Source of the DNA: a virus
Taxonomy: Duplodnaviria; Heunggongvirae; Uroviricota; Caudoviricetes
DNA length: 44,007 nucleotides
Direction: 5' to 3' (one strand)
IMG/VR virus record: IMGVR_UViG_2636415673_000006
Positions 39,959 through 44,007 of the stretch are shown here, piece after piece; the first letter of the stretch is position 1; each line of letters begins with the position of its first letter. The translations under genes and the position numbers were made by a program. The notes under the pieces are model-generated. The model made no database searches and was not told where the DNA came from. It worked only from the letters and a program-made list of their open reading frames with translations.

Positions 39959-40891
39959 ATGCATCGTATAGACACGAAAACCGCGCAGAAGGATAAGTTC
40001 GGCGCGGGTAAGAACGGTTTTACCCGTGGTAACCCCCAGACCGGCACGCCTGCCACCGATCTGGATGATGACTACTTTGACATGTTGCAGGAGGAGCTTT
40101 GCAGCGTGGTGGAGGCATCCGGTGCCAGCCTGGAGAAGGGGCGGCATGACCAGCTGCTTACAGCGCTTCGTGCGCTGCTGTTAAGCCGCAAGAATCCGTT
40201 TGGTGATATCAAATCGGATGGCACGGTGAAAACGGCTCTCGAAAACCTTGGTTTGGGAGATGGCTCGGGGCGTTACAGCAAAACTGTCGTTTTTTCATCG
40301 TCGGGTTCATATACGTGGCCAGCTGACGTAAAACGAATTGACGTTATTCTGACTGCGGCGGGCGGCGGTGGCGGTGGATGTAACGCGGAGAACGCAAATC
40401 AGACATTTTCAGGGGCTGGCGGAGGAGCCGGAGGTACTGTTTTTGCCACTATTTATGCGACAGACAACGATGCCGGGCCAGGGACCTATACAGTGACAAT
40501 TGGCAGCGGTGGTAGTGGTGCCAATGGGCCAGGGTCTGGAAATAATGGCGGTCATAGTTCGTTCATGACATTAACTGCGCTCGGCGGCCAGGGTGGGCAA
40601 TGGGGCGGCGCTACAAATACCGCTGGCGGGCTCGGTGGTGCAGGCTCTGGCGGTTATAAAACTGAACAAGGCGGAGACGGTTCAGACGGACAGGCGGGCC
40701 AGACGCTGTTAGTAGGCAATGGGGCATCGAGCTATTGGGGTGGCGGCGGCCGCGCTGGGCAACTGAGCGGTAATCCTGGAGCTTGCTCTGGCTCCGGCGG
40801 CGGGGGTGCATACGATAATAGCTATTCACACACGTCAGGACGTGGCGGGCACGGAGCTAATGGCGTGCTGGTAATTCGGGAGTACATGTAA
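39959..40891 (+). CDS. Tail fibre protein with glycine-rich C-terminal domain
   Basis: Conserved tail-fibre N-terminus ([51 protein letters not shown]) followed by about 200 aa of Gly-rich repeats ([28 protein letters not shown]). Confidence 0.7.
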
Positions 40892-41296
40892 ATGAATGAT
40901 ATCTATGCAGTTGTTGATAATAACGTTGTTATTAATGTCATTATCTGGGACGGAATTTCTGAATGGAAACCAGAGGCTGGTAATTTAGTTCCGTTAAACG
41001 GCGATGCTGGCATCGGTTGGTCATATTCAGACGGAGTATTTACCGCGCCACCTCCCCCAGAACGCTCTCACAACGCGTTAGTTGCGGAGGCTGAGCTGCA
41101 GAAATCAGCACTACTGACCGTAGCAAATAACACAATAGCACCGCTGCAGGATGCCGTTGATTTGGAAATGGCGACAGACGATGAACAGGCGTTACTGCTG
41201 GCGTGGAAAAAATACAGGGTGCTGCTGAACCGTGTTGATACCTCAGCGGCACCCGAAATAGAGTGGCCTACGCAACCGGGGGAGCGGGCCAGTTGA
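40892..41296 (+). CDS. Tail fibre assembly protein (Tfa)
   Basis: 134-aa ORF with the conserved Tfa C-terminus ([26 protein letters not shown]). Confidence 0.7.
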
Positions 41297-41520
41297 TATC
41301 AGGCGCAGCGTCAGCATCAACTGCTGTCACTGCGTCGATGTAGTCGAGTACCGCATTCAGCCGCGTTTTTTCATCATCAGTCAGTTTGCGGCCTGCACTT
41401 CTCCGTTGGCATCTTTGTTATATGGTACAACTGCGCAGAGGCCTGTCTCTTCAATTGTGCCAGTTGAATACTACGATACAACGCTCGGCCTTCCTGTTTG
41501 GTGGAACATAACCACATCCA
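41278..41520 (-). pseudogene. Remnant of a second, inverted tail-fibre assembly gene (5'-truncated and frameshifted)
   Basis: Minus-strand hand translation gives ...[46 protein letters not shown]-stop, with an upstream out-of-frame piece ...RALYRSIQLAQLKRQASAQL; both parallel the Tfa C-terminal consensus. No start codon; converges on and overlaps the plus-strand Tfa 3' end. Confidence 0.5.
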
Positions 41521-41554
41521 CATGGAAAAGAGCTGATGGTATAGATGTATAAAC

Positions 41555-41580
41555 TTAAAAAAGGCGCTTTTTAGCGCCTT
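41555..41580 (-). terminator. Rho-independent terminator downstream of the acyltransferase gene
   Basis: aggcgc-ttttta-gcgcct hairpin flanked by A/T runs on both sides; on the minus strand the stem is followed by tttttaagttt. Confidence 0.5.
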
Positions 41581-41584
41581 TAAA

Positions 41585-42709
41585 TTAAGATATTCTTTTA
41601 GCTATAGAATGACCTATATTTATAAACGGTTTTTCTATTACGTTATATATCAAGTAAGATAGGCTTATAGAAATTATGAGCGATGATATATAAATGGCAA
41701 ACGATCTATGTTCAGTGCTAACACCAATGCTGGAACCGTAAAACTCAATAAACTGTATAACAGGAACATGAATCAGATAAAGTGAATATGATATTCCACC
41801 AAGAGCAACAAGTGATTTATTGAATGAAATAACTTTATTATTTTCTAGAATAATAACACATAAAACAATCAGAAATGCAATATATGCAGATCGCGTCAAA
41901 CCATGTCCTTCAGACACCCCATTAAGCCAAAAAACAAACATCATTCCTAGAATGAAAACGCATAAACTATTTATAATAGCATTATTCATTCTTTTATGCC
42001 TAAGTAAAGGCATTGTCTCTGATATAATCATCCCTAAAATGAAATCATATACTATAGGGTTGCCTATGAATCCTATATGAGAAAACACTCCTGTTTTTGC
42101 AATATTGAATGATTGGGCGTCAATTACTACCGAGTGGTTAAAGTAAAGAGAAATAATTGTACTTACAGCAACTAGAAAACATGATGTGATTAATACCCTG
42201 TATTTTATACTTAATGACATGGATATTGCGAAAATAAAATAAAAATATATCTCGTACCCAAGTGACCATGAAACAATTAGCGTTCCCCACCCATAATATG
42301 GCGGTAGAGTTGAGCCATCTAAAGGGATGAGAAGAAATGATTTTATAATATTATTTATAGAAAAAACACCACCCCATGATACGCCTGTGTAAATATTGTG
42401 GTAAAAAAGAAAAACATAAACGCTTAATACTATTGCGTAAACAGGATAAATTCTAAAAAATCTCTTTACAAGAAATGAAGCGGTATTTCTTAAAGATGTT
42501 TTTGCTAAGTTTTTAGTTGAGTATGATATTATAAATCCGCTTATTATAAAAAACAATTCAACTCCAAATATAGCATTCGCGGTTATCTTGTCCATGAAAG
42601 AACCAGGATCTACTTGCCCGAAAAGACCTCTATTATGACCAATAGCTACAGCAAGAGCTGCAATTCCACGAAGCGCTTCTATTCCGTATAATTTATCTGT
42701 TTTCATCAA
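41585..42709 (-). CDS. Acyltransferase family 3 integral membrane protein (putative O-antigen/LPS O-acetyltransferase, lysogenic-conversion gene)
   Basis: 374-aa polytopic membrane ORF with the family N-terminus (LYGIEALRGIAALAVAIGHN); extremely AT-rich; located between tail fibre genes and integrase. Confidence 0.75.
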   Translation of the reverse strand: MMKTDKLYGIEALRGIAALAVAIGHNRGLFGQVDPGSFMDKITANAIFGVELFFIISGFIISYSTKNLAKTSLRNTASFLVKRFFRIYPVYAIVLSVYVFLFYHNIYTGVSWGGVFSINNIIKSFLLIPLDGSTLPPYYGWGTLIVSWSLGYEIYFYFIFAISMSLSIKYRVLITSCFLVAVSTIISLYFNHSVVIDAQSFNIAKTGVFSHIGFIGNPIVYDFILGMIISETMPLLRHKRMNNAIINSLCVFILGMMFVFWLNGVSEGHGLTRSAYIAFLIVLCVIILENNKVISFNKSLVALGGISYSLYLIHVPVIQFIEFYGSSIGVSTEHRSFAIYISSLIISISLSYLIYNVIEKPFINIGHSIAKRIS

Positions 42710-42849: not shown

Positions 42850-44007
42850 CTATGATACCTTCTCCTCAATCCAATCCGCCCACCACTGCATCATTTCTCT
42901 GCGCTTATCGAGATACTGAGCATGGTTGTAAATCCCGCGCACAGATCCGCCGTTGGCATGTGCCAGTTGCACTTCAATAGCATCAGCAGGCCATTCGTGC
43001 TCGTTCATAATCGTGCTGAATTCATGCCTGAATCCGTGACCGCTTTCCAGACCTTCATAGCCGATTTGTTTGATCACAAGCAGTACAGCGTTCTCGCAAA
43101 TTGGCTTCTTCTTATCGTTGCGCCCGGCAAAAACAAACTCTGATACTGGTTTGGTGATTGAACTTAGCGTAGTGAGAAGTTCAACTACCTGGTCTGACAT
43201 AGGAACCACATGAATTTTGCGTCCCTTCATCACACTGGCGTCGATGGTGATAATCCTGTTTTCAAAATCGACGTTCTTCCATAGCATGGAACGAAGCTCT
43301 TTTGTTCTGAGGGCAGTGTAGCGTAAAACTTTGGTCGCAATGAGCGATACGATACTTCCTGAAAATGTTGCCAGTGCTTTGTTGAATGCCGGGATCTGGT
43401 CTGCAGGAAGAAACGGGAAGTTCTTCTTGCGGTATCCTTTCATGGCGTCAGCAAGGTCAGGTGCCGGGTTATATTTAGCCCTGCCTGTGACAATAGCGTA
43501 ACGGAAAACCTCGCCGCATCTTCTGCGGGCTTTATTGGCTCGTTCCATTGCGCCGCGATCTTCAAATCTGCGGATTACTTCCAACAGTTGCATCGGCTCA
43601 ATATCCTGAATTTCAAGGCCGCCGATGATGGGTAAAATGTCGTCATCAAACATTTTTGCAAGTTCATTTGCATAGCCTACTGACCAGACTTGCTTCTTGT
43701 GCTCGTACCATTCCTTGTAAATGGCGCTAAAGGAGTTGTTGTTAGACGAAGCCTTTTTCGCTTTTACCGGATCGATGCCAACCGAGATGTCTTTCCTCGC
43801 AGTCCATGCTTTATCCCTTGCCTCCTGCAAAGTCATAAGCGGATATTTTCCTACGGTCAGTATTTTTTCCTTACCGTCAATCTTGTAGCGAAGCTGCCAT
43901 ACCTTTTTCCCGGATACAGGGACATAAAGGTACAGGCCATTACCATCGAGAAGGCGGTATGGTTTTTCTTTCGGCTTTGCTGCTTCAATCTGCTTAACGG
44001 TGAGCAT
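42850..44007 (-). CDS. int: Tyrosine integrase (P4/DLP12 IntD type)
   Basis: 385-aa ORF whose ATG is the last codon of the window (MLTVKQIEAAKPKEKPYRLLDGNGLYLYV...); C-terminal catalytic region HGFRHEFSTIMNE...AHANGGSVRGIYNHAQY contains the conserved R/H/R/Y residues. Confidence 0.9.
   Translation of the reverse strand: MLTVKQIEAAKPKEKPYRLLDGNGLYLYVPVSGKKVWQLRYKIDGKEKILTVGKYPLMTLQEARDKAWTARKDISVGIDPVKAKKASSNNNSFSAIYKEWYEHKKQVWSVGYANELAKMFDDDILPIIGGLEIQDIEPMQLLEVIRRFEDRGAMERANKARRRCGEVFRYAIVTGRAKYNPAPDLADAMKGYRKKNFPFLPADQIPAFNKALATFSGSIVSLIATKVLRYTALRTKELRSMLWKNVDFENRIITIDASVMKGRKIHVVPMSDQVVELLTTLSSITKPVSEFVFAGRNDKKKPICENAVLLVIKQIGYEGLESGHGFRHEFSTIMNEHEWPADAIEVQLAHANGGSVRGIYNHAQYLDKRREMMQWWADWIEEKVS

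Follow-up and report, generated by a model that had tools for sequence, protein, structure and literature searches.

Remnant of a second tail-fibre chaperone gene marks the scar of a Pin/Gin-type host-range segment, probably joined to a podovirus-type arm, in a tailed-phage genome

The window, i.e. the whole stretch of 44,007 nucleotides analysed here (IMG/VR record IMGVR_UViG_2636415673_000006), ends with a tail-fibre locus followed by a putative O-antigen-modification gene and an integrase gene (Table 1). The fibre protein combines a constant N-terminus, common to e14 StfP, SfV and SKA5, with a variable glycine-rich C-terminus (Pfam Gly_rich_2 at aa 114-307, E=8.8e-19) that corresponds to 'Sv'. 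The adjoining tail-fibre assembly (Tfa) gene is annotated as tail fiber assembly protein WP_000998154.1, so that one full set of fibre end and chaperone occupies 40262-41296. Two relics on opposite strands come next, the second being followed, 8 nt past its stop and as in Sf6, by a hairpin with a folding energy of -16.7 kcal/mol (z=-3.7). The acyltransferase-family gene beyond the hairpin is a candidate O-antigen-modification 'moron'.

Table 1. Positions and supporting evidence for the features at the tail-fibre locus of the window.
Feature	Position	Strand	Evidence or remarks
Intact tail-fibre gene	39959..40891	+	Continuous ORF, 310 codons
Pin/Gin/Cin-type 26-bp crossover site	40236..40261	+	CTCTCGAAAACCTTGGTTTGGGAGAT; constant/variable junction of fibre gene
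Intact tail-fibre assembly (chaperone) gene, 'U' equivalent, 134 aa	40892..41296	+	Caudo_TAP E=4.6e-33 (Pfam)
5'-truncated Tfa' relic (U'/TfaE type)	41268..41405	-	Caudo_TAP match, homology, PGAP partial CDS
Tailspike C-terminal tip relic, 48-codon open frame	41406..41552	+	tblastn, PDB match, protein relatives
GC-rich hairpin with T-run, terminator of acyltransferase gene	41560..41581	-	Terminator scan
Acyltransferase-family gene	41585..42709	-	ORF; PGAP product 'acyltransferase family protein'
IntS integrase	42850..44007	-	ORF; adjoins tRNA-Arg (argW) in identical genome

The minus-strand relic, termed Tfa' here, has 45 codons and a stop (41268-41270) and corresponds to residues 156-200 of a protein of 200 aa. 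When translated, 41271-41417 gives 49 aa that matched Caudo_TAP (PF02413) with E=6.1e-11 (43 bits; cut-off 22.1) over profile positions 94-130 of 131, that is, as a C-terminal fragment, and the Smith-Waterman score of the relic was 178, compared with 26 +/- 3.6 for shuffled sequences. Relic and intact Tfa gene are convergent, and their 3' ends share 29 nt (41268-41296). An earlier note, made from the letters alone, had proposed a minus-strand Tfa C-terminus in this arrangement, and the alignment statistics bear it out. Identity was 78% and 76% over 45 aa to the full-length Tfa' of a P1-like plasmid and a P2-like prophage, respectively, 64% to a third full-length or longer Tfa' gene, and 65% over 40 aa (60% in a second comparison) to the TfaS pseudogene of K-12; 42 residues could be aligned with residues 158-200 of K-12 TfaE.

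An in-frame stop (41418-41420) lies directly upstream of the Tfa' relic, which has no complete ORF with start codon and N-terminal part, and N-terminal homology was found in none of the frames. Comparison of the N-terminal 158 residues of Tfa' with every minus-strand frame of 41403-41584 gave nothing significant (p=0.05-0.14 versus shuffles), and a frameshifted extension into this interval reached at best a score of 29-33, against 25 +/- 3.7 for shuffles. The sole candidate, an 18.5-bit match, SIQLAQLKRQASAQL, is the reverse complement of a conserved tailspike motif, 'GTTAQRP', and falls in DNA for which a plus-strand reading is the far better explanation. The relic is cleanly 5'-truncated, without a frameshift; of its first description as 'truncated, frameshifted' the former part stands and the latter does not. 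Likewise, the extent first given, 41278-41584, holds for Tfa homology up to ~41405 only, the rest (41406-41552) being a plus-strand tailspike relic. In a 100% identical E. coli genome, PGAP (RefSeq) annotates 41268-41396 as 'tail fiber assembly protein, incomplete, missing N-terminus'. The relic is thus already known as a partial gene, and scars of this kind are commonplace among prophages of E. coli. Its distinct variants comprise seven nonsynonymous and one synonymous change, at ~2.6 times the density in intact Tfa (n=8 variants). Absence of constraint is suggested by these values without being statistically established, because the substitution counts are small (eight for this relic, five for the tailspike relic). 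Taken together, the minus-strand sequence is a pseudogene fragment, predicted to be nonfunctional, of a second tail-fibre chaperone gene, the counterpart of U' of Mu and TfaE of e14.

The adjoining plus-strand sequence is recognisable from its relatives as the outermost C-terminal tip of a receptor-binding protein of the beta-helix tailspike type. It matches the last 42 aa of CBA120 orf212 (tblastn against phages, E=2e-9) and residues 584-627, the terminal ~44, of CBA120 TSP3 (PDB 6NW9/5W6F; E=1.2e-11). Among 1.84 billion representative proteins, 210 matches with E<=1e-3 were obtained, in most cases at the extreme C-terminal end of long proteins, which carry Beta_helix, Tail_spike_N and T7-tail domains. 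The junction between tip and Tfa' relic falls at ~41403-41412. The plus-strand open frame extends over at most 96 codons, the upstream half being antisense to the Tfa' relic; a full-length beta-helix tailspike is absent here, and no Pfam domain was detected in this frame. The earlier note recorded neither this relic nor the crossover site at 40236-40261. Instead it had pointed to 41495-41520 as loosely resembling a Gin/Hin-type site, a proposal that does not hold: the best 26-mer there has mismatches at 11 of the 20 consensus positions, 3,670 other 26-mers of the window do as well (the candidate is no better than 4% of all 26-mers), the letters there code for 'GLPVWWN', a conserved part of the tip, and the real site is within the fibre gene, 1.2 kb further upstream.

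In a complete system of this type, the constant N-terminus of the fibre ends at a 26-bp site, and a second, inverted site bounds the segment. Between the sites lie two convergent sets of fibre end and chaperone, one per strand, with the chaperone genes overlapping by 29 nt. An adjacent serine invertase flips the segment, by which the N-terminus is fused to either receptor-binding end. The recombinational enhancer, bound by Fis, normally resides inside the invertase gene (Gin/Hin/Cin).

The window retains a single crossover site, the sole match to TTCTCNNAAACCNNGGTTTNNGAGAA with <=3 mismatches (0 in 100 shuffles). It deviates at 2 of the 20 specified positions, the next best 26-mer in the 44 kb deviating at 6, and it is identical to the left site of e14 (pixL) in 25 of 26 positions. 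It also contains 15 of the 16 nucleotides of the e14 P-segment repeat (PMC12529663). As positive controls, the same scan recovered the two sites of e14 and the two gix sites of Mu; it also found two sites in each of four further loci (L008, L009, L013 and L014), and detected the SKA5 pair as an inverted repeat. The site coincides with a border of homology: nucleotide identity of 96-97% to SfV, SfII, SKA5 and e14 runs up to 40260-40263, inside the site, with none beyond, and identity to SfIV stops at the same point. Correspondingly, the fibre protein equals that of SKA5 up to '..ALENLGLG' and then diverges.

The remaining parts of a switch are missing. No second crossover site was found in the window at <=5 mismatches. 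Neither the SKA5 invertase (E<=1) nor the SKA5 alternative fibre end gave a tblastn match in the whole 44 kb, in agreement with the earlier statement that an invertase and a Mu-type alternative fibre end are absent, and PGAP annotates no invertase between the fibre gene and intS. The invertase gene that would carry the enhancer is thereby also absent from the window by tblastn. Of the second convergent set, 45 of ~200 chaperone codons are left. Because a second site, an alternative fibre end and an invertase are all lacking, the switch is locked; the fibre is predicted to be fixed in one form, with no local inversion possible.

Relatives that keep a complete invertible segment at exactly this locus support what the earlier note had suggested, namely that the arrangement is the relic of an invertible tail-fibre host-range segment. 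SKA5 (OR670062) is 96.4% identical in gp48 and in the fibre N-terminus up to the crossover site, and its locus likewise ends the tail module. Unlike the window, it has a complete segment with two inverted sites 1,803 nt apart, a 187-aa DNA invertase, an alternative fibre end of 153 aa, and a convergent U' of 197 aa with the same 29-nt overlap. In element e14 of K-12, nucleotide identity is 96.5% over a stretch that starts at baseplate J, includes the fibre N-terminus and reaches to the site, and its tfaP and tfaE converge with a 29-nt overlap as in the window. However, tfaE is full-length in e14, which also retains the stfE end, the right site and pinE (order stfP-tfaP/tfaE-stfE-pinE), and its expressed fibre end and chaperone differ from those of the window, where the fibre end is glycine-rich. 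The P segment of e14 still inverts (PMC12529663). Functional Mu has the same gene order (gp46-gp47-gp48-S-U-U'-S'-gin) and a site inside the fibre gene at the constant/variable boundary, but its U and U' are 28 nt apart rather than overlapping and its sequences are distant. The 29-nt overlap further occurs in 720R4 and at loci L007 and L009, and the P1-like plasmid and the P2-like prophage in which it is found both carry recombinases. In all complete segments seen, the alternative fibre end S'v lies on the same strand as U'.

Between the complete segment of SKA5 and its full loss, the relatives form a decay series. Three E. coli prophages retain two sites together with a 123-nt invertase stub, and the length of U' still present declines from 525 nt in SfIV through 100 codons in K-12 tfaS to 45 in the window and none in SfV and SfII. 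In SfIV, ORF-22 is a convergent minus-strand Tfa' with a 29-nt overlap to Tfa, cut by ISEhe3, next to one crossover site and without an invertase. The published description (PMC3851460) presents it as a 'unique additional tail fiber assembly protein' with a possible effect on host range, and not as an inversion relic. The tfaS locus of CPS-53/KplE1 in K-12 has the same argW integration site and IntS as the window and the same order, i.e. moron, Tfa' relic convergent on yfdK (Tfa), and a fibre remnant with one site; yfdK and tfaS also overlap by 29 nt. Yet tfaS keeps 100 codons versus 45 here, the truncation points differ, and the DNA adjoining the Tfa' relic is ryeG/yodE in K-12 and the tailspike tip in the window. 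The two truncations look independent.

The junction of the window, which joins Tfa' residue 156 to the start of the tip, is identical in 29 further loci, which supports a single origin of the relic. At one of them (L020), homology begins at the core of the crossover site and stops at 41552, in a different baseplate backbone. Past 41552 the sequence varies with the type of moron, other copies of the cassette having gtrABC-type genes in place of the acyltransferase. Altogether the 30 copies fall into five downstream cassette types, each with its own allele of the last tip residues, and mosaic breakpoints are present inside the tip. Because of these cassette-linked alleles and breakpoints, the tip could be a conserved left homology arm for swaps of O-antigen cassettes (acyltransferase/gtrABC) between prophages, and the lone, near-perfect pix-type site in the expressed fibre gene might still be a substrate for Pin invertases acting in trans from e14, Rac or Qin prophages in the same host; we regard both proposals as rather doubtful.

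A search for the source of the tip yielded no donor. Megablast and blastn against phages returned only a 75-nt Tfa match, E. coli genomes searched in distant mode confined the tip to one family of 69 genomes, and a word-indexed protein search for a full-length version gave only three hypothetical proteins of 59-63 aa. A scan of GTDB genomes yielded no match, and in IMG/VR the same relic was found 24 times, besides one distant match. Henuyfy11N and AV104 bear the tip and are siphoviruses without the moron/integrase arm. In the collections searched, no full-length tailspike was found that ends in this tip, adjoins such a moron and has high DNA identity.

The DNA to the right of the tip resembles the corresponding arm of Sf6, a P22-like podovirus. 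IntS is 96.6% identical to the Sf6 integrase over 1,151 nt (98.4% at the amino-acid level), and the order and orientation of tailspike 3' end, hairpin, convergent acyltransferase and IntS are the same. Sf6 differs in that its tailspike is full-length, with an unrelated C-terminus, while the window keeps only the last 48 tailspike codons; the acyltransferase resembles Oac of Sf6 weakly (31% identity over 81 aa). According to PMC3636060, these phages have O-antigen-modification and int/xis modules homologous to those of P22-like phages.

These observations can be combined into a model for the origin of the locus. Half of the interval flagged by the earlier note is a tailspike tip on the other strand, which argues that the segment was lost by joining foreign DNA. 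Illegitimate recombination would have linked a P22-like 'tailspike-moron-integrase' arm with a myovirus tail module of the e14/SfV type, the breakpoints lying within U' and close to the tailspike 3' end, respectively. Such a graft into a decaying invertible segment, rather than a simple deletion, would account both for what is gone (codons 1-155 of the second chaperone gene together with the alternative fibre end, right site and invertase) and for what survives, namely the left site, the glycine-rich fibre end with its chaperone, and the last fifth, at the 3' end, of the second chaperone gene. The 29 nt overlapping intact Tfa would be retained because they encode the C-terminus of that protein, and the rest of the relic may persist as a neutral spacer. 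Later, the block 40245-41552, passengers included, would have moved as a unit onto at least one other phage backbone. The graft step draws on architecture and on the integrase, because the C-terminus of the Sf6 tailspike differs and Oac is weakly similar. As a whole, this explanation, comprising a dead second-chaperone relic of a Pin/Gin-type host-range segment, a locked fibre and a grafted podovirus arm, appears to us very probable.

That the Tfa' relic arose by chance or as an inverted partial duplication of the resident Tfa gene hardly deserves credence. The C-termini of Tfa proteins do share a short conserved motif (..APDIxWP..) from which short antisense matches could arise, and the relic is 46% identical to the resident Tfa over 35 aa. 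It is, however, closer to TfaE/U' proteins (78%, 76% and 60%, with E values down to 2e-19, versus E=2e-4 for the resident Tfa), scores ~40 standard deviations above shuffles, and sits in the exact 29-nt-overlap register of true U' genes; its TfaE-type affinity and the shuffle test refute this reading. Deletion in situ is a more serious contender, if still an unlikely one. By this account a single deletion in a once complete segment removed U' for the most part, along with S'v, its right site and the invertase, and the tip is an opposite-oriented end from a multi-segment system (p15B/Min-like). Exactly a Tfa' relic and a lone site would be left, and stepwise decay in situ does occur in relatives, as the IS-cut relic of SfIV and the invertase stubs illustrate. 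But S'v should then lie on the strand of U', as in complete segments, and the tip is on the plus strand. Moreover, its family is found on beta-helix tailspikes with T7-tail or Tail_spike_N N-termini and not on fibre ends of the Mu/P2/e14 type, the tip has no flanking crossover site, and it is followed by the Sf6-like hairpin-acyltransferase-IntS arm, all of which favours the graft.

We also considered whether the locus is expressed, either as a small protein or RNA from the 48-codon plus-strand frame or the 96-codon antisense frame (RyeG/YodE-like), or as an antisense or convergent-transcription element acting on Tfa. There is a precedent in K-12, where a sigma-70-transcribed RNA encoding a toxic 48-aa protein lies between yfdI and tfaS (PMC7498339), and small hypothetical proteins of 59-63 aa are called at the tip in some genomes. 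The tip frame is intact in 26 of 30 copies (the window and 29 further loci), and one 3' allele restores consensus residues; since the frame is open in most copies and consensus is regained in that allele, the tip may keep some residual role. The remaining four copies, however, are frameshifted by a 4-nt deletion, further copies show substitutions at motif residues (W to R, D to Y), and the tip variants (three nonsynonymous, two synonymous; n=5) occur at twice the density in intact Tfa. In addition, the frame would have to start with TTG, no Shine-Dalgarno sequence is evident by eye, a nearby promoter-like sequence matches at only 9 of 12 positions, and an Rfam scan of 40800-42000 gave no family at threshold. 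YodE, despite equal length and equal relative position, has no homology to the 48-aa frame. YodE has no significant phage homologue either. Expression of this kind is therefore very improbable, and the locus is best read as a locked remnant of an invertible segment joined to a podovirus-type arm.

The significance of the locus is limited and goes little past correct annotation. For the prophage, a fibre locked in one receptor-binding form means that host-range switching by inversion is not expected. The 'extra' Tfa-like ORFs that have been reported for SfV-like phages would be leftovers of e14/Mu-type segments rather than further host-range genes. The tip would represent the junction of a podovirus-type moron/integrase arm with a myovirus tail module, and a receptor-binding cassette of 1.3 kb, mobile between backbones, would be bounded on its left by the crossover site and on its right by the tip. 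The locus may thus provide a small, concrete case of how serotype-converting prophages are assembled from parts.

The minus strand immediately downstream of the intact tail-fibre chaperone gene (Tfa) carries the remnant of a second chaperone gene, Tfa' (TfaE in e14, U' in Mu). In a profile search it matched positions 94-130 of the 131-position Pfam family Caudo_TAP (E=6.1e-11; 43 bits, cut-off 22.1 bits), and its alignment score was 178, compared with 26 +/- 3.6 in shuffled DNA. It was 65% identical over 40 aa to the TfaS pseudogene of K-12, and it shared 78% and 76% of 45 aligned residues with full-length convergent Tfa genes from, respectively, a P1-like plasmid and a P2-like prophage. A Tfa C-terminus thus does converge on the intact gene and overlap its 3' end, by 29 nt, as the earlier note had proposed. 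The remnant does not, however, extend to 41584: homology stops at approximately 41405, corresponding to residue 156 of the 200-residue protein, with an in-frame stop codon (41418-41420) just upstream, and the remainder belongs to a plus-strand relic. The N-terminal 158 residues of full-length Tfa' relatives had no significant match in any of the minus-strand frames of 41403-41584 (p=0.05-0.14), so that the relic is truncated, as suspected, but not frameshifted. The weak signal of a frameshifted Tfa was the reverse complement of a GTTAQRP motif in the plus-strand relic. The observation of a Tfa' relic is correct but unremarkable: K-12 tfaS offers a direct parallel, and existing PGAP annotation already calls a partial Tfa lacking its N-terminus at the equivalent of 41268-41396.

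Features of the tail-fibre end and its right flank
Feature	Coordinates	Strand	Remark
Intact fibre gene	39959-40891	plus	one continuous 310-codon ORF
Intact Tfa gene	40892-41296	plus	
Tfa' relic	41268-41405	minus	45 codons; stop codon 41268-41270
Tailspike-tip relic	41406-41552	plus	48-codon frame LASLLYGTTAQRPVSSIVPVEYYDTTLGLPVWWNITTSTWKRADGIDV*
Hairpin	41560-41581		between tip and convergent acyltransferase
Acyltransferase gene	41585-42709	minus	right of Tfa' relic
intS	42850-44007	minus	right of acyltransferase gene

With 2.3 Gb searched, the plus-strand frame aligned to the C-terminal 42-46 residues of CBA120 orf212, a tailspike, and of proteins from the tailspike region of Kagunavirus (E about 1e-9); it also aligned to residues 584-627 in the solved structure of TSP3 (6NW9/5W6F; E=1.2e-11). 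An exhaustive search of 1.84 billion representatives yielded 210 matches at E<=1e-3, most of them at the very C-terminus of long proteins; those sampled carried Beta_helix, Tail_spike_N or T7-tail-fibre N-terminal domains. What lies in the second half of the flagged interval (41278-41584) is thus a separate relic, encoded on the opposite strand: the tip of a receptor-binding protein of the tailspike type. PGAP annotation of an identical genome has no feature there.

Scanning the 44 kb with the Din-family consensus TTCTCNNAAACCNNGGTTTNNGAGAA, which recovered both e14 sites and both Mu gix sites as positive controls, revealed exactly one crossover site, at 40236-40261 (CTCTCGAAAACCTTGGTTTGGGAGAT; 2 mismatches). 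None is expected in shuffled sequence, and the next-best 26-mer of the window had 6 mismatches. The site encodes ..ALENLGLG.. within the fibre gene, matches the left site in the P segment of e14 at 25/26 positions, and includes 15/16 of the repeat published for e14 (PMC12529663); this near-perfect e14-type (pix) site stands alone inside an intact gene. Identity with e14, SfV, SfII, SfIV and SKA5 ends exactly there, and all SfV-like elements examined (SfV, SfII, SfIV, 689R6, 720R4 and K-12 yfdL) had exactly one crossover site, this one. The stretch at 41495-41520, in which the earlier note had seen a loose resemblance to Gin/Hin-type sites, had to be abandoned as a crossover site: it had 11 mismatches in 20 specified consensus positions, 3,670 other 26-mers of the window were equally good, and the stretch encodes the conserved GLPVWWN of the tip. 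PGAP splits the fibre gene of identical genomes into an incomplete StfP pseudogene and a separate glycine-rich domain-containing protein, probably an annotation artefact arising from the mosaic junction at the crossover site. A full-length but sub-threshold match to Rfam IS009 inside the intact Tfa gene (41059-41247, plus strand; 48 bits, gathering score 117; E=1e-9) probably reflects Tfa-gene homology rather than an RNA.

The flagged region was found with 100% identity in a prophage that E. coli strain C4 carries at tRNA-Arg (argW). Its tail module (DNA circularisation protein, baseplate, gp45-like, gp46, gp47/J, YmfQ (gp48), fibre, Tfa) is of the Mu-like type of the serotype-converting phages SfV, SfI, SfII and SfIV and the cryptic prophage e14, with 96-97% nucleotide identity to SfV-type phages and e14 over gp48 and the fibre N-terminus, and is syntenic with gp46-gp47-gp48-S-U-U'-S'-gin of Mu. 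Complete segments occur in Escherichia phage SKA5 (fibre, Tfa, convergent Tfa' with a 29-nt overlap, alternative fibre end, right site, invertase; two crossover sites 1,803 nt apart) and in K-12 e14 (stfP-tfaP/tfaE-stfE-pinE, with the same 29-nt overlap as here), where inversion still occurs (PMC12529663). Since related phages carry a complete segment, the interpretation as a Mu G-segment or e14-type relic stands, and the Tfa' relic is a pseudogene scar of such a segment. As the earlier note had stated, the window lacks both an invertase and an alternative fibre end of the Mu/e14 type; it also lacks a second crossover site. Intermediate states of the segment are found in the window, in three E. 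coli prophages with both crossover sites and a 123-nt invertase stub, in K-12 CPS-53, whose tfaS keeps 100 codons compared with 45 here, and in SfIV, whose 525-nt Tfa' is cut by ISEhe3. The latter, ORF-22 (NC_022749 locus L015, 6635-7159, minus strand), was published (PMC3851460) as an additional, unique tail fiber assembly protein that might influence host range; it belongs to a decayed invertible segment, as its U'-type gene, and was truncated by ISEhe3. No Tfa' remnant was detectable in SfV or SfII. The SfV-like vB_EcoM-689R6 (locus L012, 7381-8870) has a short 172-aa fibre without Tfa, followed by McrA-like and DNA invertase genes in an e14-like right arm, with one detectable crossover site.

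The Tfa' relic adjoins the tailspike tip within a few bases, and the same junction was present in 29/29 further copies (5 E. coli genomes and 24 IMG/VR contigs), which suggests that the junction arose only once. The P22-like podovirus Sf6 has its tailspike, terminator, oac and int in the same order as tip, hairpin, convergent acyltransferase and IntS in the window, and its integrase is 96.6% (nucleotide) and 98.4% (amino acid) identical to intS; according to PMC3636060, SfV-like and P22-like phages have homologous O-antigen-modification and int/xis modules. The simplest account of segment loss would be that illegitimate recombination joined a podovirus tailspike-moron-integrase arm (the moron being a candidate O-antigen-modification cassette) to an e14/SfV-type tail module, replacing most of U', S'v, the right site and the invertase and leaving 48 tailspike codons; the tip relic would then mark the graft junction. 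We infer this joining step, because a donor of the tip and moron/integrase arm was not found among phages, E. coli genomes, word-indexed proteins, GTDB or IMG/VR.

Comparison of the copies gave no indication that either relic is active. The non-overlapping part of Tfa' had 7 nonsynonymous and 1 synonymous distinct variants (7.6% density) and the tip 3 and 2, all small counts, compared with 7 and 4 (2.9% density) in intact Tfa; the C-terminus of intact Tfa is encoded by the 29 overlapping bases, which keeps these under constraint. Some tip copies had a frameshifting 4-nt deletion, others substitutions at motif residues. There is a slight chance that the plus-strand frame nevertheless acts as a small protein: the equivalent position in K-12 holds the toxic 48-aa YodE encoded by RyeG (PMC7498339), but the frame showed no good start signals and, despite matching length and position, YodE had no sequence similarity to it or to any phage protein. 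In CPS-53, ryeG/yodE (NC_000913 locus L004, 6498-6644, minus strand) lies between the gtrC-like yfdI and tfaS and is transcribed.

In FDAARGOS_1288 (NZ_CP070007), the block 40245-41552, from the crossover-site core to the tip end, recurred (96.8% identical) on another baseplate backbone, one with a larger baseplate J and a DUF2612 protein; positions 1469-2785 of this locus (L020) correspond to 40236-41552, homology beginning at the site core. Hence the functional fibre end and its chaperone move between backbones as one cassette, which carries both relics along. Beyond 41552, the copies had one of five unrelated cassette types (an acyltransferase gene or one of various gtr sets); each type went with a particular allele of the tip's last residues (41485-41552; loci L002, L003 and L018-L045), and mosaic breakpoints fell within the tip relic. 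These patterns suggest, without proving it, that moron exchange may use the tip as a homology arm.
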